From Candidatus Electrothrix yaqonensis (lineage in GTDB: Bacteria; Desulfobacterota; Desulfobulbia; Desulfobulbales; Desulfobulbaceae), in contig CP178758.1 in the NCBI GenBank assembly GCA_047651235.1, forward strand, positions 1,770,001 through 1,802,000: a stretch of DNA of 32,000 nt. The letters are read 5' to 3'. Positions within the stretch are counted from its first letter, which is position 1, and each line of letters begins with the position of its first letter. The notes under the pieces are model-generated. The model was given only the letters and a program-made list of their open reading frames with translations, was not told the DNA's origin and ran no database searches. The position numbers and the translations under genes were made by a program. Of this stretch, positions 14,549-28,053 are shown in pieces.

Positions 14549-15340
14549 TCACCCTCCCGGCGAATCCGCAGCCCGAATTTTTACCCCGTCGCTCTTTCTC
14601 TCTTTGCGAACATGCGCCCCTTGAGTCTGTGCAGCATCAAGCACCGATGCGCTGAACCGTTGAAGAGAAACGCTTTTCCTTTCGTTTTCCTGACACCACG
14701 TCAGATAATTGGGATACAGGCGTTCATCGGAATCCTCATAAGAAACAGCTCCGTATTCCCGGCGTTCCTTTTTTGTGCCGACCTGTACCGCTGCATCAGG
14801 ATCGGGCAAGAGGTTTTCCGCCATCCAGGCAAAAACAGGATTGTTGAACATGGCCGCATCCAGATTGGCCCGGCGTACCCGTTCCGGCATAACCCTGAAA
14901 ATATCCGTGACCTCTTCACGGGAGAGCTTCAAAGCCCAATTGATGATACCCGGTGCCTCGTTGTATAGAATCGTTTCCTCTCCGCCGCGTTTATCCCATG
15001 CGGCCCGCTCTTCCTTTGTTATCCTTCTGTCGAATTCAAGGGTTATTCTTCTGCGCTCAAGGCCGCTTGTATAATCCGTGCTGGCAAGCCGTTCATTGCT
15101 CATCATAAGGGTTTGCCCCTCATAGATGAATGAACCTTCCTGCTGTTTGTTCTTGCGCTCCAGCCGTAGCGGGTCTTGTCCGGTCATGGCCTTCAGTTGG
15201 CTGACCGAACCGCCGTACTTGTCCGCCTCTTCAATGGCGGTTAACCGTTTGCCGTGGATATTGGCGGTTTCAAATTTATTGGTTTCCAGTTCCTTCAGAC
15301 TGGTTGTGGTGGTGTTAACCTCGTCGATTGGTTTTATAAC
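14549..15340 (-). pseudogene. C-terminal fragment of the AEP-primase/SF3-helicase (P4-alpha/D5-like), separated from its N-terminal part by a 9-kb insertion
   Basis: The open frame runs from the TAA at 15343-15341. It reads (VIKPID)EVNTTTTSLKELETNKFETANIHGKRLTAIEEADKYGGSVSQLKAMTGQDPLRLERKNKQQEGSFIYEGQTLMMSNE... This is the post-Walker-A/Walker-B segment expected right after GPAGTGKST, which ends the ORF at 24370-26595. Confidence 0.8.
15329..15337. repeat. Left terminal inverted-repeat arm (TGGTTTTAT) of the nested element
   Basis: It is the exact reverse complement of 24359-24367. Confidence 0.5.
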
Positions 15341-15354
15341 TTATCTTTTCGGGT

Positions 15355-16143
15355 TCACCTGGAAGTATAGGTTCGAGAAAAATGATTAAAAACGGCGGGT
15401 TTCCAGGAGGCGAGCTTGTCCGCCCGACATATGGTGACCACTTCGACTTTCCTACATCCTGCCTTTTTCAGAACCTTTGCGCATTCATTTGCAGTTGCCC
15501 CAGTGGTAAAAACATCATCCAAAAGCAGGATTTTTTTCTCTAAAATCTCAGCAGGGTGCTTAACAATAAAACTGTCTTTCAGATTTCTCCGGCGTTCCTT
15601 GCCGCTTAAATTCGTCTGACTGGGGGTATCTCTTTGCCGGGCCAATATATCGAACCGTATCCTTTCCTTTTCTTCTGCAAAGAGTTCCCTCACCAACAGC
15701 AGAGCCTGATTGAAACCGCGCTTCCGTAACCTTTTGACATGGAGAGGAACCGGGTGGATAATGTCGGGGACTTCCAAGTCATTGACAACAGAACTCTGCT
15801 CCCATAAATATCGAAAAGTCGAAAGCCCGGTCAATCTCCCGGTATATTTCAACCTGTGGATCAACCCGGCAACAACTTCCTCATAAAGAACGAGCGACCG
15901 GGCCTTATCAAATTCCCAAGGTGATTCCAAACAGTCCACACAGAGGTGGTTTTCTCTGCCGGTGGAAAATCCTCTGCCGCAGCAAGAGCAGTAAGGGGAA
16001 GAGATAAACTGCAACCGGGCAAAGCAGTCTTCACATAACCGCCCGCCCCTATTCCCGGTCAATGCCGTGCATGAAGGACAAGACGGCGGAAAGATGAGAT
16101 TGAGAGAGGCAGAGAAAAAAGAGTGAAAAAAGTCTTTGTTCAT
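15355..16143 (-). CDS. ComF family protein (ComFC/GntX-like phosphoribosyltransferase with an N-terminal Cys-rich zinc finger)
   Basis: 262 aa with the cysteine clusters CPSC...CEDC...CSCCG...CVDC. It has VPLHVKRLRKRGFNQA and the PRPP-binding loop ILLLDDVFTTGATANE. Confidence 0.85.
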   Translation of the reverse strand: MNKDFFHSFFSASLNLIFPPSCPSCTALTGNRGGRLCEDCFARLQFISSPYCSCCGRGFSTGRENHLCVDCLESPWEFDKARSLVLYEEVVAGLIHRLKYTGRLTGLSTFRYLWEQSSVVNDLEVPDIIHPVPLHVKRLRKRGFNQALLLVRELFAEEKERIRFDILARQRDTPSQTNLSGKERRRNLKDSFIVKHPAEILEKKILLLDDVFTTGATANECAKVLKKAGCRKVEVVTICRADKLASWKPAVFNHFSRTYTSR

Positions 16144-16146
16144 CTA

Positions 16147-16344
16147 TTACCTTTTCCGGCAGAGCAGGGGCAGCCGATCAATATACTTCACAGTTTCATT
16201 TCGAATGCATAACCCGCCTGCCCGTTGACCTCCACGGTCTGAATAAGAAAGGGGCGGGCCGCCAGTTCCCCCTAAAATGAAATCACAGCCTTTTGCAGCT
16301 TGGATTTGTTCTGAATCACCGTAAACAAGAATCGGGTCACGCAC
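16147..16344 (-). CDS. Hypothetical 65-aa protein immediately upstream of the ComF-like gene
   Basis: It has a GTG start, and its stop lies 3 nt before the ComF ATG. No motif was recognised (VYGDSEQIQAAKGCDFILGGTGGPP). Confidence 0.3.
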   Translation of the reverse strand: MRDPILVYGDSEQIQAAKGCDFILGGTGGPPLSYSDRGGQRAGGLCIRNETVKYIDRLPLLCRKR

Positions 16345-16393
16345 TAAACACGTTCCCGGTTACAGAATCAGAAATATTCATAGATTCTATTTA

Positions 16394-17137
16394 TTACGCT
16401 TTAGCACAAAGATAAATATTGGCGGTAGAACGTATAGGTATATTATCCGGGGTAGAAATAATTCGAAGACCGGCTTTTTTTATCAAATTTAGCATACTGC
16501 TATGTTCTACTGGGTACAAACACCAACATGCTGAATACTTTTCATTAGTTTGTTTATCTTCAAGCCTAAAATCTTGTCGAAATATATTATTTTCAATATT
16601 GCATTTTGTATAACATGCATACTTATTTTTTATATTTTTGTCTAATTTCTTCCAATTATAACATTCTTTTTGTTTGAAATGCGAATTTACAATAATTATA
16701 ACTCCCGAACTATGTAAAAACTTACTGCAATTCATTAAACATGAGAGCCTGTCTTTATCATTCGTAAGATGAAGAAACATGCTACCTGCAAAATAAACAA
16801 TGGAAAATCTATTAATCAAATCTCCATGTGGAGGATTAACCATATCGCCTTGTACTACCTGAACATTACCCACAAGAGTAACGCCTTTTTTCTTTATTTT
16901 ATTTTTTAATACTGTTAGCATATTGAAAGAACTATCTAGTCCTACAATATTATACCCCTTACCAGCCAGTTCAAGCAGTTTTAATCCGGTACCACACCCA
17001 ATCTCCAGAATGGGATCTCCATATAACTTTGCACAAAAAGTCAATAAATCTGAATCCAGTCCTTTTAGACCCAAACTTAAAATTATTTCATCATAACAGT
17101 TACTAAAGAACAAATCGTTATATAGATTATTATTCAT
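16394..17137 (-). CDS. Class I SAM-dependent methyltransferase
   Basis: 247 aa with motif I (ILEIGCGTGLKLLELA), post-I (VGLDSS), VVQGDM and IVYFAGSMFLHL. The DNA is visibly AT-rich. Confidence 0.85.
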   Translation of the reverse strand: MNNNLYNDLFFSNCYDEIILSLGLKGLDSDLLTFCAKLYGDPILEIGCGTGLKLLELAGKGYNIVGLDSSFNMLTVLKNKIKKKGVTLVGNVQVVQGDMVNPPHGDLINRFSIVYFAGSMFLHLTNDKDRLSCLMNCSKFLHSSGVIIIVNSHFKQKECYNWKKLDKNIKNKYACYTKCNIENNIFRQDFRLEDKQTNEKYSACWCLYPVEHSSMLNLIKKAGLRIISTPDNIPIRSTANIYLCAKA

Positions 17138-17143
17138 AGCAAC

Positions 17144-17926
17144 TTAATCCTTACCGCTACCATTAGTGTTTAATAATCGCTCAAGAAGCGGCAAAAACAG
17201 CATTTTCACCGTCGAGTTTAGTTTTTCTTCTCGACCTTTAGAAAACATATTAGGATCTGAAGAATCCATATATAGTATAGCCTTTGCATATTCTCCAGCC
17301 TGCCCGATAGGGAATGCATAAAAAGATTTTCTATCTTGAGTAAGTCGAGAAATTTCATCTTCAGTGAAAGCCCATCGACTCTGATAATCATCAGTAATCT
17401 TTACCTCGTCAGGAATGCTGTATAGTTGAGGGCGACGCGTCCTAAAAGCCTGCCCTGTAATACCTTGAGTAAAAACAAATTTTCTTCCACGTCCTGTTCT
17501 GGCCGGATAATAATCTGTTACCTGTTCATATGTCTGAGTTTTTTGGTTTCTAATATGATGTAACACCACTCTTGAAGAACGATCTAACTCAAGAATTTTA
17601 AAAATGACAGGAAGGAGTTCTGCAATAAATCGTATTCGCTCGTAATATTTAGGCGTTATACTTACAAAAACCAATAGTGCATTAGAAAAAATAAAACTTA
17701 TAAAAAAATTCCAATGAACGCCCTTTGCCAGTGGGGTAGGGGTCGCAAGGAACAGTCCCAAAAACAGCGACGAAACAGCAGTAAATACAACTGTTAGAAC
17801 AGTGCGATACCTTACGATAGACAGCTGAATGTCATAGAATAAAATTTTTAACCGCATAACAATGAAATCTGCTTTAACTGATTTGAAATAAGAAAAATTA
17901 CACAAACAAGATTGAAAATTAACCAT
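17144..17926 (-). CDS. Membrane-anchored GAF-like domain protein (start uncertain: ATG 17926 or ATG 17857; the track TTG at 18007 is unlikely)
   Basis: It has two TM helices (TVLTVVFTAVSSLFLGLFLA and HWNFFISFIFSNALLVFVSI). A GAF-like pattern follows (GITGQAFRTRRPQLYSIPDE...SFYAFPIGQAGEYAKAILYMDS). ATG 17926 overlaps the stop of the 46-aa ORF (ATGGTTAA). Confidence 0.55.
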   Translation of the reverse strand: MVNFQSCLCNFSYFKSVKADFIVMRLKILFYDIQLSIVRYRTVLTVVFTAVSSLFLGLFLATPTPLAKGVHWNFFISFIFSNALLVFVSITPKYYERIRFIAELLPVIFKILELDRSSRVVLHHIRNQKTQTYEQVTDYYPARTGRGRKFVFTQGITGQAFRTRRPQLYSIPDEVKITDDYQSRWAFTEDEISRLTQDRKSFYAFPIGQAGEYAKAILYMDSSDPNMFSKGREEKLNSTVKMLFLPLLERLLNTNGSGKD

Positions 17927-18059
17927 GATGAAATTTAAAAGTAAACACAAACCTTTGATTTTCTGCAAACCCGTATACAACAACCGCCAGCAAAAGGAAA
18001 ATTGCAACGTTACCTACCCTGTTATAATTCTGCTTGAACTTACTTATTTCTTTTGACAT
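17919..18059 (-). CDS. 46-aa single-TM peptide
   Basis: ATG 18059 is preceded by GGAGGG. It reads MSKEISKFKQNYNRVGNVAIFLLLAVVVYGFAENQRFVFTFKFHHG. It is below the ORF-track cutoff and is the first gene of the AT-rich cassette. Confidence 0.45.
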   Translation of the reverse strand: MSKEISKFKQNYNRVGNVAIFLLLAVVVYGFAENQRFVFTFKFHHG

Positions 18060-18418
18060 TCATCCCTCCATCGTTTAGCCGGACAACAGCAGTTCAATAT
18101 TACTCATTTATCAATTGGTGATAGCAATCATATACCCGAAAATCTTATCAAGAATGGCTCGCTATCCCCACCCGCTACAGGGGCAAGCCAGTCTCTGAAT
18201 ATCCGGCCAAGAACAACGAAAATTTTATTTTCTATATCTCACCCCATATACCAGTAGAGAACCCACTGATTTTGCCCCGTAAGCTATTTCTGATCTCCCA
18301 TGTATAGGGTACTCTATAGCCGGAAAGAACGGATATAAAGACAATTGCACTATGCCGTAGACGGGGGCCGAAATAAGGCGGATTCTTACCAGATTGGAGA
18401 CCGTTATTCAGGAAGCCT

Positions 18419-19291
18419 TCAAGACTGAGAACTTTTTCTACCCTCCAAAGAATTCAGACCGAAAGCCCGTGTCCCAAGTTTTTCCTTATACAGATTTTCG
18501 TAATTGATAACTTCTTTATTGGTAAGAGTTTTGGGAAGCGTCCGCAAGATTGTAAATTGAAAGTTTTTTGCCGCCTTCGAGTCTTGAGCCAATATCTTTT
18601 TCAGCAAAACGTTTCCGCCGTGACCGGTCGTTGCATATTCTTTCCAGCGGCCCAAAATACCTCTTTTACCATAAGCGGAACCGACATATTGCTTCCCGCT
18701 TGCCGTATCCATAATCAGGTAAACCCCGGCCACAGAGGATAACATCGTGTGCCATTCCCGGTTTGCTTCAGGGGCATTTATTATCGTTTGTAATTCATCA
18801 TAACGAAGAACAAAATCAAGATAACCGGGGAACTCCTTCACATATCCAGCCGGAAGTATTTCCGTTACTTCCCTCTCACTCATCCATTGGTGCCACGCAA
18901 GTGCAGATTTTCCCCAATTAATCACAACACGATTTTTCAGATCATCAAATCCGTTGACCTTCTCTAACTCATAATGCACGGCGTTTTCTAGGCCGATATA
19001 ACAATCTGAATATATAAAATTATCCGGCAGAGGAACTTCTGGTGCAGGGCATTTTTTGAGGACTTTGTAGACCTCGAAAAACAAGGCTTTCATATTTTCC
19101 TGCCCGATAAATACAACGAGATAACCGCGTTCAGGAAAGATAGGCTTATCTTGGTAGGATTGATAAATTTTCAACTGATCTTTCCGGATCAGCTCATTGA
19201 TATCATATCGTTTATCCTGGTGGCGAATGAATTTAATTTTTGCGTCTAAATCCAAGCCACGTTCTTTCAGCAGCTCAAGAATCCCGATCAT
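18419..19291 (-). CDS. GIY-YIG nuclease family protein with a ~190-aa N-terminal domain of unknown function
   Basis: I prefer ATG 19291; the track uses TTG 19303. The C-terminus reads GVYLIMDTASGKQYVGSAYGKRGILGRWKEYATTGHGGNVLL...NFQFTILR...YKEKLGTRAFGLN, which contains the GIY...YIG/R/E/N motifs. Confidence 0.85.
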   Translation of the reverse strand: MIGILELLKERGLDLDAKIKFIRHQDKRYDINELIRKDQLKIYQSYQDKPIFPERGYLVVFIGQENMKALFFEVYKVLKKCPAPEVPLPDNFIYSDCYIGLENAVHYELEKVNGFDDLKNRVVINWGKSALAWHQWMSEREVTEILPAGYVKEFPGYLDFVLRYDELQTIINAPEANREWHTMLSSVAGVYLIMDTASGKQYVGSAYGKRGILGRWKEYATTGHGGNVLLKKILAQDSKAAKNFQFTILRTLPKTLTNKEVINYENLYKEKLGTRAFGLNSLEGRKSSQS

Positions 19292-19835
19292 TGGTTTCCC
19301 CAAAAAAGAAGGGCGCGACTAATGCCTCGCCCATCCAAGGTACGCCAATACCGATCTAGGAACAAAACAGAAGACGCACCCATTTCGGGTGCGTTTCCGT
19401 CAGATTCGATTCCTAGATTAAAAAATTGGCGTTTTTTGGATGGAACGACTCTGCGAAATACGCAAAGATATGTTTGTGTTACTATATTATTCAGTTACAT
19501 AGGCGACTCGCACAGATTGTTGTAAAAAATTACCTTCAGTCAAAACTACAACCGAATTAGACAACGCTATCTCGATAAAGTCAAACAATTTCAATTCAGT
19601 TAAGAGCCGCAAACATAGGAAGGCTGTTTCACTGACCAAATTATTCTTCCGCTCACCTTGTGATTTTATCTTCCGTCAACCTCTCCACAATTTACCGACT
19701 CAACTTTACCTTTTATCTAAGTCGCAACATCAGTTATTAAAAATGAATCTAAAGAAAAATTTTAAAAAATACTTTACGACACCTACCAAATAGGGTTATA
19801 AGTAAAAATAAAAACTTTAGCGAAGAATTGACAAC

Positions 19836-20537
19836 ATGGAAGCATACGGATATTTACGGGTCAGTACCAAGGGCCAGATAGACAAGGACGGTTTCCGCCG
19901 TCAACGGGACGCAATCAGGAGGTACGCCGCCTCTTCAAAAATCACCATTCCGAAATACTACAAGGAAGAAGGCGTTTCAGGAACAAAGGGGGAAGATGCC
20001 CGCCCCGCTTTTCAGGAAATGATCACCGACATCCTTTCCAACGGAATCAGAACCGTGATTGTTGAACGGCTCGACCGGCTCGCAAGGGAGTACACTATTC
20101 AGGAACAACTCCTCATCTATCTTGCAAGCAAAGGAATCACTCTCATAAACGCTTCCACCGGGGAAAACATCACTAAAGCAATCAACGCCGACCCGATGAA
20201 AAAGGCCATAATCCAGATACAGGGTGTATTCTCCGAACTGGAGAAATCGTTATTGGTCAAGCGGCTCAAAAAGGGCAGAGAACAGAAAAAGGCCGAAACC
20301 GGAAAGTGCGAAGGTGCAAAAGGTTGGGATGAGATCAACCCGGAAAGGAAGGCGGAGGTTTTGAAACTGGTTCGCCGGTTACGGAGGAAGCCCAGAGGGG
20401 GCGGACGGCAGAAGAGCTATCAGGCCATAGCCGACCACCTCAACAAAGAAGGGATCGAAACATTGCGGGGCGGGACGTGGAGTGCTCAATTAGTCAGAGC
20501 CTTTCACCAGAACGGGGCGGCCAGTACCAGAAAGTAG
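19836..20537 (+). CDS. Small serine recombinase (resolvase/invertase type)
   Basis: 233 aa. It has the YGYLRVSTKGQ catalytic Ser motif and VIVERLDRLAREY. A C-terminal HTH-like segment follows (SYQAIADHLNKEGIETLRGGTWSAQLV). Confidence 0.9.
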   Translation: MEAYGYLRVSTKGQIDKDGFRRQRDAIRRYAASSKITIPKYYKEEGVSGTKGEDARPAFQEMITDILSNGIRTVIVERLDRLAREYTIQEQLLIYLASKGITLINASTGENITKAINADPMKKAIIQIQGVFSELEKSLLVKRLKKGREQKKAETGKCEGAKGWDEINPERKAEVLKLVRRLRRKPRGGGRQKSYQAIADHLNKEGIETLRGGTWSAQLVRAFHQNGAASTRK

Positions 20538-20788
20538 TCGAACCACACCGGGAACCCATCTGTTTTGACCCGATAGCCACGAACCGTCCCCGTTCCATAG
20601 GAAGCCCCACATCGGACATAAAACACGAAATACGGCCAAAGAAACGAAGCGGGCTTTTTACTCTGAACCAGTTTATAATACTTGTAATGTTGGGCGGATA
20701 GGCTCGCTACCGAAAAGGAGGAATCCGAACCTCTCTTCCGCCCAATTTTTCTTTCGGATCACCATAACCGCTATCGGAGGCGGGCATA

Positions 20789-22228
20789 ATGGCAAAGCAT
20801 AAACGGGCCATAATAGACAAGCATGTCTTCAAAAAGAAAAGAGTTAGAAACATACCAAGACGACGAAAGAAACAGCAAGACTACTTTAATTCCGATTCCA
20901 TATCAAAAAATCTTGAAATCAACGCCCCGGCAAACATAAGCCTCTCATTTCGGTTTAACAACTCCGCAGAGTATAAACCCAATCTGATTTTCTTTCAGGA
21001 CAGCCCTTATCTTGAATCAGTAAATCAGCTTTATTCCGATTGGGCCGATAATAACCGTTGGCAATCAAGACCCGCGCAAGAGCGGAAAAGGTACCTTATA
21101 TCTGTGGTCGCAAACCTTTTAACGCTTCCGAGAACTTCAGGATCACAAATCAGAAGACCGCTTTCTATCAATATCGACTCCAATCAACGTACCAGTCAAC
21201 TTACTGATGTTATCCATTTTCTCAGAGACGAAAAATACATCAACTTTCTACCCGGTTTCAATTGCCACAACGGCAAATCAAAAACATCAAAAATATACCC
21301 CACAGAAATTTTCGATTCTGCTTTTCCCCCATTTGCCGATCCCTGTCAGGCTAATCCCCATATCACTATCCCTGATTCGGAGCTTATCAGAAAAAACCGG
21401 GATCGAAAACCCGTCGAACTTACCGAAACCGACATTAAAAATACAAAAAGAATACGCAAAAAACTTCAACGAATCAACCAAGTCAACCATAGTCACCATA
21501 TCGTTATCAAGAAAAATAAATCAGAGCTTCCTTGCTGCACAAAACTTTGCGTAGTTTACAGCCCAACCCTCAAACGGGGCGGGCGGCTCTATGCGTCCAG
21601 GAACAACCATAGTTATCAGAACTGTTCCAAGGAGGAAAGAGCTTGTATATTCATAGACAACGAACCGACCGTAGAACCTGACTATTCCGCTTTCCACCCC
21701 CATATGCTTTACGCCGAAAAGGGGATTCAATACGAGGGGAAACCATACGACTTGTCAGAGGAATTACCGGAGTTTCGAGACGACTACAAGGAAACGGAAA
21801 AGGAAGAGAGAAAGAAAATGCAAAGAAAGTTATCCAAGCGTGCCGTATTTATTGCCATTAACGCGAAAAACGATAACCTAATATCAACTCTTTCCAAGTA
21901 TGTTTTGAAAAACAATATATCCCTTTGTATTTACAGTAAAAAGAACTACAGGAAAGGATTGTATGGGCGAGTTATAGAGGCGGTAAAGAAGAAGCATAGC
22001 CTCATTAGTGAATCCTTCAATACAGATGCCGGAGCACAACTTCAAAACAAGGACGGGAAAATGGCCCTCTATATTTGCGATTACTTCGCTAAAAAAGACA
22101 TTCCCATTCTTCCTGTCCACGACAGTTTCATAGTAGCGAAGAAACATGAAAGCCTTTTACGGAAAATCATGGAAGCGACCTATAAGAAATACAACCACGG
22201 ATTTACATGTCCCATAACCACGGAGTGA
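20789..22228 (+). CDS. Minimal family-A-type (Pol I / T7 RNAP superfamily, TV-Pol-like) polymerase candidate
   Basis: 479 aa. The C-terminal 220 aa carry the following motifs in canonical order. Pre-motif A: RGGRLYA (aa 263-269) ... YQNCS ... EERACIF. Motif A: EPDYSAFHPHMLY (D298; compare Pol I DYSQIELR). Motif B: RKLSKRAVFIAINAK (K350; compare RRSAKAINFGLIYG and T7 TKRSVMTLAYGS). Then QNKDGKMALYI (compare T7 SQDGSHLRK). Motif C: ILPVHDSFIV (H444-D445; compare T7 LIHDSFGT and Pol I QVHDE). Confidence 0.6.
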   Translation: MAKHKRAIIDKHVFKKKRVRNIPRRRKKQQDYFNSDSISKNLEINAPANISLSFRFNNSAEYKPNLIFFQDSPYLESVNQLYSDWADNNRWQSRPAQERKRYLISVVANLLTLPRTSGSQIRRPLSINIDSNQRTSQLTDVIHFLRDEKYINFLPGFNCHNGKSKTSKIYPTEIFDSAFPPFADPCQANPHITIPDSELIRKNRDRKPVELTETDIKNTKRIRKKLQRINQVNHSHHIVIKKNKSELPCCTKLCVVYSPTLKRGGRLYASRNNHSYQNCSKEERACIFIDNEPTVEPDYSAFHPHMLYAEKGIQYEGKPYDLSEELPEFRDDYKETEKEERKKMQRKLSKRAVFIAINAKNDNLISTLSKYVLKNNISLCIYSKKNYRKGLYGRVIEAVKKKHSLISESFNTDAGAQLQNKDGKMALYICDYFAKKDIPILPVHDSFIVAKKHESLLRKIMEATYKKYNHGFTCPITTE

Positions 22229-22264
22229 ACTAGAGCGAAAAAAGGAGAAAATATACTTACATTC

Positions 22265-22370
22265 CAAATCATTATAATCAAAACAGAAAACTTATAATAT
22301 GGATATTTAGGAGTATAATATATAAATAATAATAATTATATAATAATAAAAAATAATAAAATATATGTAT
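22265..22370. other. Extremely AT-rich tract with (AAT)n-like low complexity; candidate origin/DNA-unwinding element or promoter cluster
   Basis: 22314-22366 is an uninterrupted 53-nt run of A/T (tataatatataaataataataattatataataataaaaaataataaaatatat). It lies directly downstream of the polymerase-like gene and upstream of the LSR gene. Confidence 0.4.
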
Positions 22371-22620
22371 CGAACTCCCAAGTTTAGTTCAGAGTCTGAA
22401 AAATCCATAAGACTGAAAACCGGGTTTATGGAAATTGAAATTCCAAACGGAAGAGCTATCCAAAAGAGGAAAGCCCATATTGAACCTCATTTAAAACGAT
22501 GCAAAGGGGTTTGTTTTTTCTTTTCCGGCCTTGTTCTATAGGTAGGGGGCAAACAAGCCGAAAACGGTTGAAAAGGACAAATCAAGAGTTTCTAAACTTA
22601 TCCCAACTCAAGGAAAAAAC

Positions 22621-24468
22621 ATGAATAAAGCTGTAGGATATGTACGGGTCTCTACGCACCACCAAGTTAAAGGCGGGGAATCTCTCACCACTCAGAGAAA
22701 AGATCTCAACAGTTACGCCAAGAAGAATGAATATGAGCTGGTTAAAATTTATGCCGATGAAGGTATTTCGGGTGGTTCGGTAGAAAAGCGGCCCGGTCTC
22801 CGAGCCTTGCTCAAGGACGCCAGAAATCAAAGTTTTTCCCTTGTCCTTGTCAACCGCCTTTCCCGGTTGGGCAGAAACGCCAGAGAACTGCTCAACAACG
22901 TTCAGTTGCTCAAAGAGGCCGGGATAAGTGTTGTCTTCCTGAAGGAGAATATCGACCTTTCCAACGCCTACGGCCAATTCATGCTCACGATGCTTGCCGC
23001 TATGGCGGAACTTGAAAAGGATATTCTGGGAGAATCTTCGGTTGAGAACAAAATTGCATTGGCTAAGAAAGGAGTCCCATCCATTGGTAAGTACCCTTTC
23101 GGGCGGCGATACAATCGTGAAACGGAAGAGTGGTATTTTGATCCACCCGATATCAAAGAAGTGGTGAATGATATTGCGGATCGTTACCTGAATGGAGAAG
23201 GGCTGAGGGATATTGCAGACACCATTGATCCGAAATACCAACTTACTTACTCGAATATTTTAAAAGTGTTCCACGGAAGAGCCGGAAACACTTGGGAGCT
23301 GCAATTTAAGAAAGAAGACAAACCCATTGTGTTTGAAATCCCACGGCTACTGAGTGATGAAAAGATCGAAGCAGTGATGCAAAAAATAGACTTCAACAGA
23401 ACCTTCACCAAATCAGACCGCAAAAGCTATACATTTCTGCTTACCGGGTTTGCCCGCTGTATGGACTGCGGAACGGTATTAACGGCCCAACATCAGAAAA
23501 GTAAGCCTCGAAAGAAGACCCACAAGGGCTACACATACAAGTATTACCGACATCGGGCTGGAAAAAGAGAAAAATGCAAGGGCTTGACCTCGATAAAAAT
23601 TGAAAAGTTAGAAAATGCTGTTCTGAACGCTGTCTGGGAAAATATGAGTGATGAGGACAGCGGATTTGATGAAGCTTGGACCGATAACTACCCGGATCAA
23701 AGCAGGATAGGCGAATTGAAAAACCGGATAAAGGAAAACCAAAAAAAGCTGAACAAGGCGGAAGCTGACCGGGATAAACTTGTTGATGCACTTCTGAAGG
23801 GTATCTTGACCGAGGATGCGATAAAAAAGAAAAACGATATTCTCTCCAATGAAATATCACGGTTGACCGCATTATTGACCAAGGATGAACAGAAATTGTC
23901 CCGGATGCCCTCTGTTGAAGAGGTCAAAGGAAAGGAAGAAATGCTCAAACTCGCCTTTCAGGATTATTACTATTCACGGGAGAGGTTCGACTCAATGACC
24001 TTTGAGGAGAAGCGGGCTTTGATGTTTTCTATTTTTGACGGGGTGGATGAAGACGGAGACCCTTTGGGAGTCTATGTAAAAAGGATAACTCCAATCGGTG
24101 AGTTACCCGTTCGGTTTGAAATCTATATCAATGCTCGTTTTTTTGCCGGGTATGTTGCCCCTGATACCGTTGATGATGACGATTACGGAAGCGACTCTGA
24201 AAAGGAGGGCAATAGTGATTCATCTTCCGGTTCCTCTAAAGTAACAACGCTGCAAGATGGACGTGTGTTCTCTGCTTCTGTGCCCTCAAACGGAGCGGGG
24301 CAATGCGGATTCCTTGACTCAATACAGATCCCATCGAAATTACAGAAGGATAATTTTCATAAAACCAGTTTACGTCATCTTTTCATTGCCCACCAATTGA
24401 AAAGCCAATCTTCCCAAGGTGCTTTTTCCGGTGCCTGCCGGGCCGATGAGGTGGAGAAAGACCTGTAA
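22621..24468 (+). CDS. Large serine recombinase (integrase) of the nested element
   Basis: 615 aa with the N-terminal resolvase domain (VGYVRVSTHHQ...LVLVNRLSRLGRN). It also has a recombinase domain, a zinc ribbon (CMDCG...C) and a long coiled coil (KLNKAEADRDKLVDALLKG...). The last ~30 codons lie beyond the predicted element junction, antisense to the primase gene. Confidence 0.9.
   Translation: MNKAVGYVRVSTHHQVKGGESLTTQRKDLNSYAKKNEYELVKIYADEGISGGSVEKRPGLRALLKDARNQSFSLVLVNRLSRLGRNARELLNNVQLLKEAGISVVFLKENIDLSNAYGQFMLTMLAAMAELEKDILGESSVENKIALAKKGVPSIGKYPFGRRYNRETEEWYFDPPDIKEVVNDIADRYLNGEGLRDIADTIDPKYQLTYSNILKVFHGRAGNTWELQFKKEDKPIVFEIPRLLSDEKIEAVMQKIDFNRTFTKSDRKSYTFLLTGFARCMDCGTVLTAQHQKSKPRKKTHKGYTYKYYRHRAGKREKCKGLTSIKIEKLENAVLNAVWENMSDEDSGFDEAWTDNYPDQSRIGELKNRIKENQKKLNKAEADRDKLVDALLKGILTEDAIKKKNDILSNEISRLTALLTKDEQKLSRMPSVEEVKGKEEMLKLAFQDYYYSRERFDSMTFEEKRALMFSIFDGVDEDGDPLGVYVKRITPIGELPVRFEIYINARFFAGYVAPDTVDDDDYGSDSEKEGNSDSSSGSSKVTTLQDGRVFSASVPSNGAGQCGFLDSIQIPSKLQKDNFHKTSLRHLFIAHQLKSQSSQGAFSGACRADEVEKDL
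24359..24367. repeat. Right terminal inverted-repeat arm (ATAAAACCA) of the nested element
   Basis: It is the exact reverse complement of 15329-15337. Confidence 0.5.
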
Positions 24469-26595
24469 ATCAGGGCGACCTGTGAACAATGCATTGAACC
24501 ATGCCTGAATCAAACGGACAGACTCCGGGTCATCATCCAGAGCTGTTGTAAGCCATGCAAGGAAGTCCGGGCAGTCTGCATCAGGAGAGTATTCATAAGG
24601 CAATACCCAGGTATGGGCATTTTCCGCCGTTACGGGCACAAGCTTCCCTGTGTTCTGATCAAGCAGACCGTTTTGAAAGGGGATGGTGCCGGGCAGGGGA
24701 TCGGGTAGCGGGTTCCGTCCGCTCTTCTGCAAGAGCTGGCTTATTCCGTTTTGGTAATTGTTGCTGAAACCGAGTCCGGCAGTTGCCGTGTAGAGCAGAG
24801 CGTTCAGGGCACCCTCAAACTCTGAAGCGGAACATTTTTGCCAGCAGCATTCATCAAAACAGTACCAGCACAGCCCGGACATGCTGAAAGCGTACAGGCC
24901 GTGCAGGGTTTCAGCGAATAATGCCGCCGCTTCCGATTCCGGGGCCGGTCTGTCTCCTTTTTGGGTTTCAATAACCATAACCCCTTGAAGATGAAGAACT
25001 TTTTCTTTTAATGAAGAGGGTAATGAAGAATAAGGTATTGATAATGAAGAAGATGAAGGCTGTGAAGACTGAAAACTCTTCCTTACAGGAGAAACCCTGC
25101 TTATATCCCTGTCCAGCTCCTTCAGCAGTACGGCTCCGTTTGCGGCCTTGAGGTCTTTTCGCACCCGCATAAACCGGGCCTTGTCCTTCTGCTTCAGGCG
25201 GGCCAGCATCTTCAGCGCATCCTCTGCAAAGGGTGCCCCGCAATCCTCCTTTGTCTGTTGGATGAGTTCCGGCAGGGCTGTATCATAATCAATGGGTTTC
25301 TCTGCTCCGTACCGCCTGAACCGGTATTTTATGCCGCCGTGGGCCTGACTGTAGATCAAAGGGTTCTGGCCCTCGTTCCAGTAGAAAACAGCCTTGCTCA
25401 TGCTGCCCCCGTCGTATTCTGGTTCCAGAGGATCGGCACAAGACTTGTTATCAAACGCCTGCCCATTGTCCAGCACAGAGGCCACGCTGACCGGCTCTTT
25501 TTCATGAGCAAACAACAACAAATCATCATCAACAAGGATATGGTGCTGTCGGGCCTTGACCGTCTCCCGTGCCTGCTCCATGCTGACCTTTCCGCCTGAT
25601 TCTGAACTGAGCTTTTCTGCTTCCTGCTCAAGGTAGGCCCCTTTAATGCGCTCCTGATCCGGGGCACCTTTCGCTTTCAGTTGGTGGATAATCTCCTGAT
25701 ACGTCTTTTCCTCTTCCGGGTTAAGATCGTTCAGGGCTTGGGTATCCAATAACCGGCCCGGCTGATACTCCGAGGCGGGCAACCTTTGTTCAAGGCCCTT
25801 ATCACAGACAGCACCGGCCACAAAATCCAATCTCTCAGGGGAGGCAACCAGCAAATCAACCAGGGTACGCACCAACACGGCACCCGACCGGCTGAACTCC
25901 ACCCGGCCATATCCGGCAAGTATCAAGCGTTTTCCCAAAACATCCAGAAAACGGGGCGTGTCCGCTGCATTCTGCGGGAACAGATAGAGGTGAAAGCCTG
26001 CGCTTTTTCCTCTCAGCTCTTTTCCTGTGTCCGTATCATGGATACAGGAGGAAGTCGAATAAACGGCAACCTGTGCCGCTTCTTTTATGGACTCAAAAAA
26101 GCCCGCAATGGTGTTTATAAGCTCTTTCGGGCTGTATGCCTTCAGTGCCTTCTCAGAATCAAGGGCAACCGCGTTTTTACGGGCCTTGTCATGATCCAGC
26201 ATGAGCAGGCCCGGCCCGTCTGGATAGTGAAAGAAATCCTTTGTTCTGGAGATGATCGGCAAGCCCTGTTCATCAGCCTGCGGACTCTCCCCCGGCCTTG
26301 TCTTCAGCCGCTTTCCGCTGACTATCAGGGCTTTGTCGTAATCACTCACCCCGTGGACAATGGCCTGATTGCTTTGCAATCCTTGCAGGAAGGGGCCGAA
26401 TTGCTCCGGCTTTATGCGCACCGTTTCAGCCCGGCCCCTACTCATCCGACATTCTGAGCTGTCTTTTTCAATGCAGCCGTTTACCCGCTTCATGCGCTTT
26501 GTCAAAATGCCCTGTGTTTTGTGCATCAGGGTAAAAGACACTTTCTGTTCTTTACCTTTGCCCGGTGCATGGGCTTTGTTTTCCGCTAAAGTCAT
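24370..26595 (-). pseudogene. N-terminal fragment of the AEP-primase/SF3-helicase (P4-alpha/D5-like), truncated right after Walker A
   Basis: 741-aa ORF with AEP motifs (LLMLDHD, GFHLYLF, RLDFVAG) and a D5_N-like region. It ends ...VFLHLIGPAGTGKSTLGRLAFQLVGNEKMT*, so the helicase core is missing here and is found at 14549-15340. Confidence 0.85.
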
Positions 26596-26846
26596 GATTC
26601 AGCCCTCCCTGTAATCTTTGACATTGAGGGCAAAGCGGGATAAACAGAGAACAGCCTGATCCTGTCAGAGGAAGGGTGAGCATTCCGGGGCCGACTGCCT
26701 GCCAGCTTGACAGCCTCGGAATGCGCTTTCCTGTTGATACTTCGCTTGAATCTGTGTATAATCTTTTTAGTTGACCTTGCCCGGTTATGTTTTAGCCGCT
26801 GATCCCGTCCCGGATCATGCGGCTTTTCTCTTTCTCTTGCCTTCAT
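26592..26846 (-). CDS. Highly basic 84-aa hypothetical protein
   Basis: ATGA overlaps at both ends (26843-26846 with alpA and 26592-26595 with the primase) argue for real, translationally coupled expression. No motif was recognised. Confidence 0.5.
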   Translation of the reverse strand: MKAREREKPHDPGRDQRLKHNRARSTKKIIHRFKRSINRKAHSEAVKLAGSRPRNAHPSSDRIRLFSVYPALPSMSKITGRAES

Positions 26847-27052
26847 GCTGCCGCCTCCTGTTCAACCTTCGGCAATCCGTCAATCCATTCCTGAATGTCA
26901 TCGGATCGCCACGCCACCGAACGACTTCCCAGCCGAACCGCTGCCGGAAAGTCTCCGGTCTTGATTCTGGCATAAATGGCAGATTTCTTTAATCCGGTGG
27001 CCTGTTCCACCTGCCCCAATCTGAGCAGAACTGCTTTCATTGCTGCTTCCAT
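26843..27052 (-). CDS. alpA: AlpA family transcriptional regulator/excisionase-like protein
   Basis: 69 aa with the motif LLRLGQVEQATGLKKSAIYARIKTGDFPAAVRLGSRSVAWRSDDIQEWI, typical of AlpA/Prophage CP4-57 regulatory proteins. Confidence 0.85.
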   Translation of the reverse strand: MEAAMKAVLLRLGQVEQATGLKKSAIYARIKTGDFPAAVRLGSRSVAWRSDDIQEWIDGLPKVEQEAAA

Positions 27053-27141
27053 GTTTGTACCTCTTGGTTGTTATGGTGCGTTACGCACCGTTATGGATTT
27101 CGTTTCATCTTTCTTCACTATAAGAGGTTGTTTTAAAAAAG

Positions 27142-27188
27142 AAAGCCGCCAAACCAGCAAAATCAAGAGCTGTTGGTTTGGCGGCTTT
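27142..27188 (-). terminator. Rho-independent terminator (15-bp stem), potentially bidirectional
   Basis: AAAGCCGCCAAACCA-N17-TGGTTTGGCGGCTTT. On the minus strand it is followed by CTTTTTTAAAA, and on the plus strand by AATTTCTTC. Confidence 0.6.
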
Positions 27189-27220
27189 AATTTCTTCTGT
27201 TTCAAGGCGTTACCTTGAAG

Positions 27221-27259
27221 AAAAAAGAACCAGCAGAACCAGCGTTGTTACTGGTTCTG
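27221..27259 (-). terminator. Rho-independent terminator after the 27284 gene
   Basis: CAGAACCAG-N8-CTGGTTCTG, followed on the minus strand by CTGGTTCTTTTTTC. Confidence 0.6.
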
Positions 27260-27283
27260 TCAGGCGACAATGTTTGTTAAAGG

Positions 27284-28021
27284 CTAGTTCTTCATCTTAG
27301 GTGGAAGCCCTTTGTGGATTTGCAGAGCCATTGGTCTATTTATTCCCCGCTCTTTGGCCTGCTGAACGACATCATCACGGGTGTACTTCAGGTATTCTTC
27401 TCTGCCTTCACAGGGCATAGCCTCCATGACTAAGGAGCAGCACAGCTCAAATGCTTTGGGAAGTTGATCTTTGAGTGTATTCACACTCTTTGTTATTGCG
27501 CTTTTTTCCTGCCCCTTCAATCCATCCGGGTACATTTTAGGGGTGAGTAATTTCAAAATTTCAGCCAGAGAATAATCTGAAGTTTTTTCTACCAATGATT
27601 CACTCTGTTCATCATCAGGGTGCATTCGTCCGGTTCTTTTAAGGGGATAATTATCCTTGAGCCATGATCGGAAGGAATGAGCCTCCAAGAAAAATTGCAA
27701 AGACAATATATAAGGTGAAAACGTATTAAGATAACTCTTAATAATCCCTTTTCGGCTATCGTCACACTCTGTGTATTCTCTTATTTCTACCGGATTACCC
27801 AGAGATTCTTGATAAGAATACAGCAGCTTATTGAGAACAACAGGGGCATCATTACGCTTAATTTTAAAATTAATTATTCCTTTATCAATAGCGGAAGCAA
27901 GTCTTTCTTTTTTCACAGCGTTTTCACCGTAAAACATACTGAACAATTTCCATCCTACCCATTCAACCTCTTCAAGCATGAACAGGTATTCTTCATAAGG
28001 CACATCTTTTTGAGATTTCAT
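27284..28021 (-). CDS. Island hypothetical protein (245 aa from ATG 28021; the track uses TTG 28039)
   Basis: Long ORF between int and alpA, followed by two terminators. No motif was recognised. Confidence 0.55.
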   Translation of the reverse strand: MKSQKDVPYEEYLFMLEEVEWVGWKLFSMFYGENAVKKERLASAIDKGIINFKIKRNDAPVVLNKLLYSYQESLGNPVEIREYTECDDSRKGIIKSYLNTFSPYILSLQFFLEAHSFRSWLKDNYPLKRTGRMHPDDEQSESLVEKTSDYSLAEILKLLTPKMYPDGLKGQEKSAITKSVNTLKDQLPKAFELCCSLVMEAMPCEGREEYLKYTRDDVVQQAKERGINRPMALQIHKGLPPKMKN

Positions 28022-28053
28022 TAAAACTATCCTGTGCAATCAAAAGAAAACAC

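Follow-up and report, generated by a model that had tools for sequence, protein, structure and literature searches.

What kind of protein is encoded by a 479-codon reading frame that lies between two serine recombinase genes, recalls both Pol I and T7 RNA polymerase (RNAP) in its motifs and matches no annotated domain, and what does it do for the DNA that carries it? A possible home for such a protein is the TV-Pol family, proposed in 2008 (Iyer, Abhiman and Aravind, Biol Direct 3:39) and almost untested since. TV-Pol was predicted 18 years ago as the minimal, possibly ancestral form of the Pol I/T7 RNAP superfamily, acting as a primase-polymerase. The gene was analysed within a window of 32 000 nucleotides, the whole stretch of DNA considered here.

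Sequence, homologs and conservation

The gene occupies positions 20789–22228 (+) as an ATG-to-stop frame of 479 aa and was assigned as a TV-Pol-type minimal family-A polymerase from a homolog alignment, an AF2 model, Foldseek and phrog_4756, the last matched with E = 1e-55. The frame and its sequence are exactly as quoted in an earlier, sequence-only reading of this DNA. Candidatus Electrothrix sp. YB6 has an identical protein, annotated as hypothetical (ACL93V_08485).

That reading had expected HMMER and Pfam matches to polymerase profiles, and none was obtained for the 479-aa protein: it matched nothing in Pfam, NCBIfam or PADLOC, nor any PDB sequence by phmmer, and hmmsearch of the PDB with the profile of 54 sequences found nothing. 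Pfam DNA_pol_A (PF00476) was matched neither by the protein nor by any of the 54 homologs up to E = 1, and Pfam RNA_pol (PF00940) gave a faint match (E = 0.096) in one of the 54 members. Comparison of the family profile by hhalign with E. coli Pol I, T7 RNAP and T7 DNA polymerase (DNAP), each taken as one sequence, gave nothing significant, the best local match being motif C of T7 RNAP (E = 0.047). The relation with Pol I is thus not detected by these sequence-profile methods, and it is structure, motifs and context that support it. The family comprises at least 12 562 representatives (clusters) at 50% identity; being invisible to Pfam, NCBIfam and PADLOC, this very large family is systematically annotated as 'hypothetical'. 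A plasmid database search returned two matches only, and homologs were also found in large, lytic-type Vibrio and Aeromonas phages.

The alignment of 54 homologs (20–56% identity) has Arg266, Tyr268, Asp298, Tyr308, Tyr320, Lys350, Leu441, His444 and Asp445 as invariant positions and Gly265, Arg284, Glu296, His303, Arg346, Asn358, Asp422, Pro442 and Val443 as near-invariant ones. The aligned aspartates, whose conservation had been proposed as a test of the assignment, are both kept in 54/54 sequences, as are Arg266, Tyr268 and Lys350; Arg346 is present in 51/54, with Lys in the other three, and Asp422 of the fingers in 52/54. Asp298 and Asp445 are retained too in the distant group of Ma-LMM01 gp030 and in the Drt4 fusions described below. 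Conservation of the catalytic residues across such diverse homologs indicates selection for catalysis.

Polymerase core

The core (approximately residues 213–479, ~270 residues; 21425–22225, +) was delimited from the AF2 secondary structure, a motif map against Pol I and T7 RNAP, and Foldseek. With the conservation just described, the family-A motifs go far beyond a chance likeness, and a check against the actual proteins of E. coli (Pol I) and T7 placed them in the order and spacing that had been read from the sequence. In the motif map, the hairpin GGR266LY corresponds to TGR668LSS of Pol I and RGR425VY of T7 RNAP, motif A (D298YSAFH) to D705YSQIE and D537GSCSG, motif B (R346xxxK350) to R754xxxK758 and R627xxxK631, and motif C (H444-D445-S) to H881-D882-E and H811-D812-S, respectively.

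In the AF2 model of the full protein (pLDDT 86.3) the predicted core consists of a thumb region with short helices only (213–218 and 220–234), followed by a β-hairpin before the palm (strands 253–258 and 260–269) bearing Arg266 and Tyr268, the palm with the motif A residue Asp298 on strand 297–299, the fingers with Asn358 and, on helix 335–358, Arg346 and Lys350, and motif C (His444-Asp445-Ser446), with Asp445 on strand 441–450. The sequence-only reading had proposed AlphaFold modelling and a fold search as a structural test; the outcome was a significant similarity to family-A polymerases. All of the top 50 PDB matches in Foldseek were Pol I-type DNA polymerases (best E = 1.1e-6, probability 1.00), with TM-scores of only 0.25–0.32, and T7-like RNAPs were absent from these 50. 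A search of BFVD returned the protein's own phage relatives first, after which all named matches listed were phage family-A (PolA) DNA polymerases or related uncharacterised proteins. The family-A fold is present in the model, with palm, fingers and a thumb region of short helices. Neither Pfam and NCBIfam nor the structural comparison revealed an exonuclease domain, in agreement with the earlier reading. Taken together, the 479-aa protein is most likely a catalytically intact, minimal family-A nucleic-acid polymerase.

Several active-site positions of the well studied enzymes are altered. The equivalent of the O-helix residue Tyr766 of Pol I is Asn358 (53/54 homologs), that of the steric-gate residue Glu710 is His303 (52/54) and that of Glu883 is Ser446 (47/54); Tyr639, Gly542 and His784 of T7 RNAP correspond to Asn358, His303 and Gln419, the last being Gln in 29 sequences and Met in 25. 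Since the HDS and GRxY motifs are nearer to T7 RNAP than to Pol I, while the O-helix Tyr is replaced by Asn and the steric gate by His, sugar selectivity is unreadable from the sequence. The evidence as a whole leans to DNA rather than RNA as the product.

Placement in the TV-Pol family

As defined by Iyer et al. (2008), TV-Pol proteins have an Arg-bearing β-hairpin before an RRM-like palm with two highly conserved metal-binding Asp residues, a fingers module that interrupts the palm and bears an RxxxK motif as well as a conserved Asp, and a thumb of two antiparallel helices N-terminal to the hairpin. They have no fused or linked nuclease domains, and a subset with an additional N-terminal domain adjoins genes for a resolvase, a λ-type integrase or a transposase in mobile elements. 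Their equivalence to prim-pols was argued from in-situ displacement, and a primase (RNA polymerase) activity was proposed for the ancestral TV-Pol (Iyer et al., 2008). The only characterised member, CCPol of staphylococcal SCCmec, is atypical (Bebel et al., 2020, eLife; Rice, 2023): it uses dNTPs with a strong preference, only extends primers when alone and primes de novo together with a DNA-binding partner, MP. Its operon includes MP (an OB-fold protein) and the helicase Cch2, and CCPol has been proposed to replicate the excised element.

The protein has the hairpin Arg, the two palm Asp residues, the RxxxK fingers and a conserved fingers Asp (Asp422) that may be the one of the definition, has no nuclease and has recombinase neighbours. 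Ma-LMM01 gp030, which from its motifs and IS605-type transposase neighbours is the probable TV-Pol of Iyer et al., was not matched by hmmsearch with the family profile; hhalign profile–profile alignment with the gp030 family extended over 157 columns and kept every motif in register (P = 0.002, with an HH probability of only 13%). The suggestion of TV-Pol membership made from sequence is supported by these features, and the alignment with the gp030 family is co-linear throughout the motifs. The same reading had allowed for a new branch; instead, the protein fits the 2008 subset in which an N-terminal domain is added and a resolvase or integrase gene lies nearby. It adds a clear case to a kind of polymerase, TV-Pol, that is known though neglected, and does not define a new kind.

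N-terminal domain

Approximately residues 1–212 (20789–21424, +) form a separate N-terminal domain that is conserved family-wide, including in the phage members (pLDDT 81.8 when modelled separately with AF2). The absence of a promoter-binding N-terminus, noted earlier, stands in the sense that these ~210 residues are a distinct conserved domain and not one of the T7 promoter-binding type. The predicted layout is a basic N-terminal helix followed by a helix/strand unit resembling a winged helix. When the domain alone was compared with PDB folds no significant match was found; the weak matches were mostly winged-helix proteins, and T7 RNAP appeared only at E > 3. Weak HTH_11 matches were obtained in five family members. 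A winged-helix nature is suggested by the model, and the domain is probably DNA-binding, a conjecture given that no structural match is significant. It probably corresponds to 'TV-PolN', which was predicted to be all-helical (Iyer et al., 2008), whereas a mixture of helix and strand is seen in the AF2 model here.

The mobile element

The gene lies on an inserted mobile element of ~9.06 kb (15317–24379) which splits a D5/P4-type primase-helicase gene and has an AA dinucleotide at both junctions. The N-terminal fragment of the split gene (24370–26595, −; phrog_16593 primase, D5_N and the P4-family primase C-terminal region) ends near 24380, where ...LVGNE is followed by KMT and a stop codon, and the C-terminal fragment (14549–15316, −; from its translation, Pfam DUF5906, E = 7e-12) resumes near 15316, where EV is followed by NTTTTSLKEL.... 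The interrupted gene belongs to a host island with AlpA (26843–27052, −; Pfam Phage_AlpA), a tyrosine integrase (28054–29385, −; Pfam Phage_integrase and an arm-binding domain) and a tRNA-Leu (29461–29546, −; ARAGORN).

Two serine recombinase genes flank the polymerase gene. Upstream is a small backbone recombinase of 233 aa (19836–20537, +; Pfam Resolvase, E = 3e-32), and at the right end of the element is a large one (22621–24468, +; Pfam Resolvase, E = 3e-39; Zn_ribbon_recom, E = 3e-9), the last ~28 codons of which lie in flanking DNA beyond the junction at ~24380. The description of the gene as recombinase-borne, made from sequence, is thereby given mapped ends. The cargo, all on the minus strand, comprises a ComF-like double-zinc-ribbon phosphoribosyltransferase (15355–16143; Pfam DZR_2 and Pribosyltran; PADLOC PsyrT/ShosT-like, E = 3e-12), a SAM methyltransferase (16394–17137; Pfam Methyltransf_25; PADLOC mad2-like, E = 9e-15), a 287-aa protein (17144–18007) with no match in Pfam, NCBIfam, PHROG or PADLOC searches, and the GIY-YIG protein UzuA of the Uzume anti-phage system (18419–19303; PADLOC UzuA, E = 4e-96; Pfam GIY-YIG; phrog_26160). 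No helicase or SSB-like partner is encoded on the element, and no small OB-fold-type ORF adjoins the polymerase gene.

In the close relatives L085 and L086 the small resolvase gene upstream of the polymerase is kept, and in L085 the position of the large serine recombinase is likewise occupied. The window, L085 and L086 thus share one gene order, with a small resolvase, then the polymerase and then (the large serine recombinase), while the cargo differs: Uzume, phosphoribosyltransferase and methyltransferase in the window, and type I-like restriction–modification and TIR with Mrr in the relatives. Because the order with the recombinases is constant while the cargo changes, the polymerase is most likely a backbone gene of the element and not cargo. 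The family is, on this evidence, the unchanging part of small cassettes by which various anti-phage systems are moved about. In L085 and L086, the small ORFs that separate the resolvase from the polymerase had no Pfam match.

Across the family, 57 loci had at least 4 kb on both sides of the polymerase homolog. A serine or tyrosine recombinase lay within a few genes in 32 of them, often directly upstream and on the same strand, and ~44% had no recombinase within the scanned range. A Loktanella locus (L066) was considered as a further instance of the founding pair of a TV-Pol and a D5 helicase and was rejected: by eye, the large neighbour looks like a host SMC-type protein (coiled coil, ABC-ATPase signature).

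Just 3′ of the polymerase stop codon is an A/T-only tract of ~60 nt (22310–22368), a candidate unwinding element or a simple terminator/promoter spacer. The GC fraction is 0.245 in 22200–22399, with a minimum of 5% in a 60-nt window. As a conserved origin the tract was set aside, the flanks of homologs being only slightly AT-enriched: the lowest decile was reached in 17% of loci downstream and 28% upstream, with 10% expected.

RNA leader

The int-alpA RNA motif (Rfam RF02996), described by Weinberg et al. (2017), was located in the 5′ leader at 20691–20758 (+), ending 30 nt before the polymerase start codon. It scored 42.7 bits (gathering threshold 35.8) over model positions 1–71 of 71, and the leader conforms to the three-helix consensus structure. 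A small hairpin bearing the Shine–Dalgarno sequence lies 3′ of the motif. The motif is in the same position before the homologous genes of L085, L001, L089, L086-88, L091 and L011, and covariation was observed in 13 of 17 pairs, values that were reached by none of 500 shuffles. Folded as a single sequence, the leader has an unexceptional thermodynamic stability (z = −0.77), so that support for an RNA structure comes from covariation only. The motif was rejected as a family-wide feature, as it occurs only in the target's own subclade (0/~125 other loci), and as one specific to the polymerase or to alpA, as viral contigs have it ahead of genes for HNH endonuclease, Bro-N, DUF559, primase and integrase. 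Other selfish genes thus share the covarying RNA leader of the polymerase.

Fusions to Drt4

Some relatives join a complete copy of the polymerase to a full-length Drt4, an arrangement present in only one of 139 sampled loci. Drt4 is an antiviral reverse transcriptase (RT) that makes random ssDNA; among related systems, DRT7 (UG10) is an RT fused to an AEP primase-polymerase, and UG9 RTs are coupled to family-A polymerases. The Drt4 fusion parallels the RT–PrimPol fusion of DRT7 and, given the ssDNA product of Drt4, fits a role of the polymerase on ssDNA templates. The fusions are an independent hint at an ssDNA substrate and possibly represent a new DRT architecture.

Proposed role and alternatives

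Our preferred reading, to which we give a probability of about 0.6, is that the protein is a primase-polymerase which replicates the excised circle and belongs to the backbone of an element with exchangeable anti-phage cargo. It builds on what was observed here, namely the fold, the conservation of the catalytic residues, the boundaries of the element, its linkage to recombinases and the RNA leader, and on the precedent of CCPol, which combines an element moved by large serine recombinases with de novo priming in the presence of a partner. Priming, dNTPs as substrates, the copying of the circle and what the N-terminal domain and the resolvase do we infer as follows. The large serine recombinase would excise the element as a circle. 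The polymerase, placed on the DNA by its N-terminal domain, would start DNA synthesis without a pre-existing primer and then extend, so that the circle would be copied and not lost. Multimers would be resolved by the small resolvase, and expression may be controlled via the structured int-alpA leader.

Some observations count against replication: the element has no helicase or SSB-like partner, unlike the CCPol–MP–Cch2 operon, the AT tract that is the candidate origin is not clearly conserved and many well flanked loci have no recombinase in range. The homologs in Vibrio and Aeromonas phages and the defence fusions indicate, moreover, that the family is not restricted to the replication of integrative elements. 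A bolder form of the proposal, which we regard as having a small chance of being right, makes the protein a self-sufficient de novo initiator that may use ribonucleotides or mixed sugars and, through its unusual active site and N-terminal domain, needs neither SSB nor helicase; it would be a portable 'ssDNA to dsDNA' or 'origin-firing' module of elements, phages and Drt4 fusions. If so, it would be the smallest known primer-independent polymerase of the Pol I/T7 RNAP superfamily.

Involvement in defence, with the polymerase as an effector or partner that makes DNA upon phage infection as defence RTs do, and not as a replication protein of the element, is an unlikely alternative. The element and its relatives do carry defence genes, full-length family members occur fused to the antiviral Drt4, and the pairing of other defence RTs with family-A polymerases (UG9) or primase-polymerases (UG10/DRT7) points the same way. 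However, no PADLOC model matches the polymerase, it stays constant with the recombinases among close relatives while the defence genes change, its commonest neighbour family-wide is an integrase directly upstream, the RT fusion is rare among the sampled loci, and phages themselves encode homologs. A miniature T7-like RNAP that transcribes the element's genes or makes RNA primers only, leaving DNA synthesis to host polymerases, is rather doubtful. Motif C reads H-D-S-F and not H-D-E, the GR-x-Y motif is as Arg425/Tyr427 of T7 RNAP, the best (not significant) hhalign match and the single faint Pfam match are both to RNAPs, and there is the primase activity proposed for the ancestral TV-Pol; against these stand the exclusively DNA polymerase structural matches among the top 50, the replacement of the rNTP-selecting Tyr639 by Asn and of Gly542, which gives room for the 2′-OH in T7 RNAP, by a bulky His, the lack of a promoter-recognition domain or specificity loop, the strong dNTP preference of the characterised relative CCPol and the fusion to a DNA-synthesising RT, which suggests DNA metabolism.

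Strand exchange by serine recombinases is conservative and creates no gaps, which argues against a primer-dependent gap-filling or repair polymerase that aids recombination or transposition without priming or autonomous replication; host Pol I would be at hand for simple gap filling, and initiation is what the additional, conserved N-terminal domain suggests, as does the fusion to an RT with primer-less ssDNA as its product. We consider such a role improbable, even with CCPol alone only extending primers and with an element devoid of helicase and SSB. Least probable by far is an inactive, degenerate remnant with a DNA-binding or structural function. It would agree with the failure of every sequence-profile library to recognise a polymerase and with the replacement of the O-helix Tyr and the motif C Glu of Pol I, but the 54 homologs, the Ma-LMM01 group and the RT fusions keep the metal-binding Asp residues, the fingers Arg/Lys and the hairpin Arg with little or no variation. 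With replication of the excised circle as the preferred reading, the locus offers a compact test case for TV-Pol: a 9-kb element with defined ends, one polymerase with a putative DNA-binding domain and two recombinases.

Comparison with known systems

Like CCPol, the protein is a nuclease-less family-A TV-Pol on an island moved by large serine recombinases, and the spacing of the catalytic Asp residues is similar (155 aa in CCPol, 147 aa here). The two differ in that CCPol has no N-terminal domain of this kind and is recognised as 'PolA' by NCBI domain searches, whereas the present protein has the domain and is recognised by no library; the OB-fold partner and operon helicase of CCPol are absent near the gene. 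CCPol is found in Bacillota and the present polymerase in a Desulfobulbaceae cable bacterium.

With Pol I (Klenow, KlenTaq, Bst large fragment) it shares the fold, the TGR motif, an LQNIP-like Gln, DYS of motif A, RxxxK and HD. Its core is about two-thirds of the length of the Klenow polymerase domain, it is without the 3′–5′ and 5′–3′ exonucleases, it has Asn, His and Ser in place of Tyr766, Glu710 and Glu883, and it lacks a Pfam DNA_pol_A match. The GRxY hairpin and the H-D-S-F motif C have the same form as in T7-like RNAPs, and the distance from the D-G element to motif C is 23 residues, compared with 25 in T7 RNAP; that enzyme is longer (883 versus 479 aa) and has the N-terminal promoter-binding domain and specificity loop that are missing here. 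AEP prim-pols, piPolB and DRT7/UG10 offer a functional analogy only, in that the proposed task is DNA synthesis without a primer, either for a small element or on ssDNA from an RT; the catalytic folds are unrelated (AEP or family B versus family A).

The closest likeness is to the TV-Pol subset with the N-terminal domain, with which the protein shares the 400–600 aa size range, the minimal core and the occurrence in phages and in small mobile elements, there beside genes for γδ-type resolvases, tyrosine integrases or transposases. Nothing essential differs from these, in a comparison made with their published description. To the picture of TV-Pol the analysis adds an element with exactly placed ends, a backbone of two recombinases whose defence cargo can be swapped and a structured RNA leader, together with a His at the steric gate and an Asn on the O-helix, both near-invariant, and the fusions to Drt4.

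Polymerase gene and family

The polymerase gene (20789-22228, forward strand) runs from ATG to stop over 479 codons, with a Shine-Dalgarno sequence, GGAGG, about 8-12 nt 5' of the ATG; its translation is the peptide quoted in the sequence-only reading. The protein is identical to ACL93V_08485, a hypothetical protein of Candidatus Electrothrix sp. YB6, and since the gene lies on a 3.74-Mb contig of a cable bacterium, the window is chromosomal DNA. Searches of Pfam, NCBIfam, PADLOC and the PDB sequences gave no match to the protein; the sole library match was PHROG 4756 ('unknown function', E = 1e-55).

A word-indexed search yielded 61 homologues, of which 54 were aligned (20-56% identity). When 1.84 billion cluster representatives were searched with the family profile, at least 12,562 representatives (50% identity clusters) matched at E <= 1e-3 and 6,440 at E <= 1e-30. 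The family is very large and has no curated model in Pfam, NCBIfam or PADLOC; public records label its members hypothetical proteins.

Active site

R266, Y268, D298, Y308, Y320, K350, L441, H444 and D445 are invariant in the 54-homologue alignment, and G265, R284, E296, H303, R346, N358, D422, P442 and V443 are at least 90% conserved. The motifs were mapped against the E. coli Pol I and T7 sequences. GGR266-L-Y268 corresponds to TGR668LSS of Pol I and RGR425-V-Y427 of T7 RNAP, D298-YSAFH303 to D705-YSQIE710 and D537-GSCSG542, R346xxxK350xxxF354xxxN358 to R754xxxK758xxxF762xxxY766 and R627xxxK631xxxM635xxxY639, and H444-D445-S446 to H881-D882-E883 and H811-D812-S813, respectively; Q277-N corresponds to LQ677NIP of Pol I, with no entry for T7 RNAP. 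The correspondence to both enzymes proposed in the sequence-only reading was thus reproduced, and the two aligned Asp residues, whose conservation it had named as a check, are invariant. Judging from these alignments, the motifs are evidently genuine and under selection.

The family departs from its classical relatives at two positions. His303 (52 of 54; window 21695-21697) replaces the steric-gate Glu of Pol I and the Gly of T7 RNAP, and Asn358 (53 of 54; window 21860-21862) stands in place of the O-helix Tyr of all classical family-A enzymes. The HDS form of motif C is shared with T7 RNAP. The near-invariant His and Asn also occur in the distant group of gp030 from the Microcystis phage Ma-LMM01.

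Fold and N-terminal domain

The polymerase was modelled with AlphaFold2 from the 54-sequence alignment (mean pLDDT 86.3, pTM 0.83). A Foldseek search of the PDB with this model gave 102 matches at E <= 0.001, the top 50 of which were all family-A DNA polymerases at probability 1.00; the matches include the Bst large fragment (1xwl, E = 1.1e-6, the best value), KlenTaq, apicoplast Pol and M. smegmatis Pol1. The structural check suggested earlier therefore came out in favour of the family-A assignment. TM-scores were low (0.23-0.32), as expected given the minimal subdomains and the lack of any counterpart to half of the chain. Among the viral models of BFVD, the first 11 matches were phage proteins of the same family (400-450 aa, E 1e-16 to 1e-23, TM 0.5-0.7), and all named entries below them were phage family-A (PolA) DNA polymerases or related uncharacterised proteins. 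T7-like RNA polymerases were absent from the top 50 matches in both the PDB and BFVD. The profile matches foreseen in the sequence-only reading did not appear: Pfam gave none, and hmmsearch with the family profile against PDB sequences was likewise empty. Alignment by hhalign did not reach significance with single sequences of Pol I, T7 RNAP or T7 DNAP, the best local matches lying at motif C.

Residues 1 to ~212 form an N-terminal domain that is conserved family-wide, phage members included. In the model it comprises a long basic helix (2-41), two helices (73-111) and a helix plus beta-wing unit (133-171). Modelled by itself (pLDDT 81.8), it had no significant fold match in the PDB (best E = 0.5); the weak matches were mostly winged-helix DNA binders (GntR, PadR, MarR, RTP, ORC), and weak HTH_11 matches were found in five homologues. 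A putative DNA-binding role is a reasonable guess.

Assignment to TV-Pol

TV-Pols were defined by a bi-helical thumb, a beta-hairpin whose Arg is absolutely conserved, an RRM palm bearing two Asp residues, a fingers module with RxxxK and the absence of a nuclease; a subset has an extra N-terminal domain and lies near a gamma-delta resolvase, lambda-type integrase or transposase (Iyer, Abhiman and Aravind 2008). The hairpin Arg, the two palm Asp residues, RxxxK, the absence of a nuclease, an extra N-terminal domain and recombinase neighbours were all found for the polymerase; at the place of the thumb, the model shows only short helices (213-218 and 220-234) ahead of the hairpin. The protein is a genuine minimal family-A polymerase of TV-Pol type and belongs to the subset that has an N-terminal domain and lies next to recombinases. 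The membership suggested in the sequence-only reading is thereby supported; its other option, a new branch, is ruled out, as the protein fits a subset already described in 2008. No paper characterising TV-Pols of the N-domain type was found in the literature.

The TV-Pol of Ma-LMM01 named by Iyer, Abhiman and Aravind (2008) is probably gp030, a 506-aa hypothetical protein adjoining IS605-type transposase genes and showing the same motif pattern. The family HMM did not match gp030. Profile-profile alignment to a profile built from six gp030 homologues covered 157 columns (P = 0.002, HH probability only 13%), keeping R-x-Y, Q, R, D, H, K, N, Q and HD in register; the occurrence of the His and Asn thus extends far outside the target's own subfamily.

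Element in the window

A D5/P4-type primase-helicase gene on the minus strand is split by an insertion just past its Walker A motif. The N-terminal fragment (26595 to 24370) ends ...GPAGTGKSTLGRLAFQLVGNE and then, past the break, KMT and a stop; the frame resumes near 15316 as EV and then, past the break, NTTTTSLKELETNKFETANIHGKRL..., and continues to 14549, with a DUF5906 match. The insertion spans 15317-24379 (~9.06 kb). AA is present at both junctions, as would be consistent with a serine recombinase and its 2-nt crossover. The split gene is the primase of an island integrated at a tRNA-Leu, with a tyrosine integrase and AlpA (26843-29546), so that the 9-kb element is nested within another mobile element.

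On the minus strand, the element encodes a ComF-like zinc-ribbon phosphoribosyltransferase (PsyrT/ShosT-like; 15355-16143), a SAM methyltransferase (16394-17137), a 287-aa protein without assigned function (17144-18007) and UzuA of the Uzume defence system (18419-19303, E = 4e-96). On the plus strand, the polymerase lies between a small serine recombinase (19836-20537) and a large one (22621-24468), whose ORF extends ~28 codons into the flank. The precise bounds and the flanking recombinases bear out the recombinase-borne element postulated from the sequence. A tract of ~60 nt consisting of A/T only, with a partial palindrome, lies 3' of the polymerase stop (22310-22368) and could be a DNA-unwinding element.

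Relatives and distribution

In two loci at 47% identity, the gene order is type I-like R-M genes, small resolvase, three ORFs, polymerase and large serine recombinase (L085), and TIR protein, Mrr nuclease, small resolvase, two ORFs and polymerase (L086). The recombinase-polymerase module is constant across these loci and the window, and the defence genes vary (cargo at 15355-19303, minus strand, in the window; L085 326-3765; L086 641-2710). The two or three extra ORFs (97-424 aa; L085 5734-7008 and 7250-7666, L086 3966-4744), which the window element lacks, have no Pfam match and could encode accessory replication proteins.

Among 139 loci from genomes and metagenomes, a tyrosine integrase was near the polymerase in 37, often immediately upstream on the same strand (one representative was confirmed with Pfam), and a serine recombinase in 20. 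One or the other was present in 32 of the 57 loci having at least 4 kb on each side.

Phages carry homologues as well: 165 records were found, for the most part Vibrio and Aeromonas phages of 110-140 kb, and V. cholerae is the host of some. They are full-length and retain the N-domain, as in Aeromonas phage PhAER-3 (L083 4611-5873), where the adjacent gene encodes a PRPP-synthetase-like protein. Most of the phage records listed (H1-H25) have two matching places, and all annotations are 'hypothetical' save one 'DNA polymerase'.

int-alpA leader

The int-alpA motif was reportedly first described near integrase and alpA genes. A full-length Rfam match (RF02996; 42.7 bits, gathering threshold 35.8) occupies 20691-20758 on the plus strand and ends 30 nt ahead of the polymerase ATG. 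Rfam also places it in the same position relative to the homologous gene in L085 (7906-7974), L001 (675-742) and L089 (9637-9709). Covariance models built here add L086-88 (L086 5053-5123), L091 (3805-3876) and L011 (8967-9040), always 23-66 nt upstream of the start. In L085 a second copy (5641-5709) precedes the 424-aa ORF, one of the extra ORFs. The motif is absent from the ~125 other family loci.

In a nine-sequence alignment, which was fitted to the model, the paired share of cells was 90%, compared with 73% in shuffles; both sides vary in 13 of 17 pairs, none of 500 shuffles equalled the observed values, and slid-partner controls reached at most 0.16 against 0.44 observed. A second small hairpin, with compensatory changes of its own, carries the Shine-Dalgarno sequence. 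A weak, partial 36-nt match to the covariance models at 11745-11780 (plus strand, E about 1e-3), within a GNAT acetyltransferase ORF, is probably spurious; it was part of the alignment (A10) that gave model R2.

Viral contigs hold 49 instances, typically 15-25 nt ahead of diverse genes (16 HNH endonucleases, Bro-N, DUF559, a primase, an integrase), none of which belongs to this polymerase family or is AlpA. Given this variety, int-alpA appears to serve selfish genes as a portable 5' leader, in this case one that controls the polymerase.

Drt4 fusions

Five proteins of ~890-930 aa (P0212-P0216; loci L264-L266, gene at L264 1686-4484) and one genomic locus (L004 2438-5200) have a full-length antiviral Drt4 reverse transcriptase fused, on its C-terminal side, to a complete polymerase copy with its N-domain, both active sites being intact. 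The Drt4 part matches PADLOC at E = 1e-163 (model positions 2-502 of 506) and NCBIfam Drt4 at E = 1e-101, short of the equivalog cut-off. No description of this architecture was found in the literature; the UG/Abi survey gives UG15/DRT4 as stand-alone and only UG9 as linked to a family-A polymerase. Drt4 synthesises ssDNA of random sequence, without a template and with protein priming; UG9 RTs act with a separate family-A polymerase, and in DRT7 an RT is joined with an AEP primase-polymerase. A family-A module joined to an ssDNA-producing RT would most simply be a second-strand, primer-independent DNA polymerase.

Proposed role and comparison with known systems

The analysis establishes that the family-A active site is intact, that the protein has an extra domain of its own, that in small elements the gene is constantly linked to site-specific recombinases, and that the element has precise ends. 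We propose that the polymerase would initiate and extend DNA on the excised circle, and that the small resolvase would resolve replication multimers. Weak points of this model are that the 9-kb element has no helicase or SSB gene, that relatives show only modest AT enrichment at the place of the A/T-only tract, which is not clearly conserved, and that many family members have no visible adjacent recombinase.

The observation and interpretation of the sequence-only reading both hold overall, the new branch excepted. The locus, clean and with defined bounds, is suited to experiments on a polymerase family that is large, lacks annotation and has hardly been tested, with further interest in the backbone with exchangeable defence cargo, the int-alpA leader and the Drt4-fused relatives.

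Between DNA and RNA as the product, the Drt4 fusions tilt the balance toward DNA as the more probable; at the active site, the steric gate is His rather than Glu or Gly, Asn stands in place of the O-helix Tyr, and motif C is of the HDS type. According to later literature, the only TV-Pol tested is CCPol of SCCmec, which is without the N-terminal domain present in many TV-Pols; here that domain may supply the grip on DNA that CCPol obtains from an SSB-like partner. CCPol-MP is a dNTP-using primase whose island is moved by a large serine recombinase, and Iyer et al. made the case, based on displacement, that TV-Pol stands in for prim-pol.
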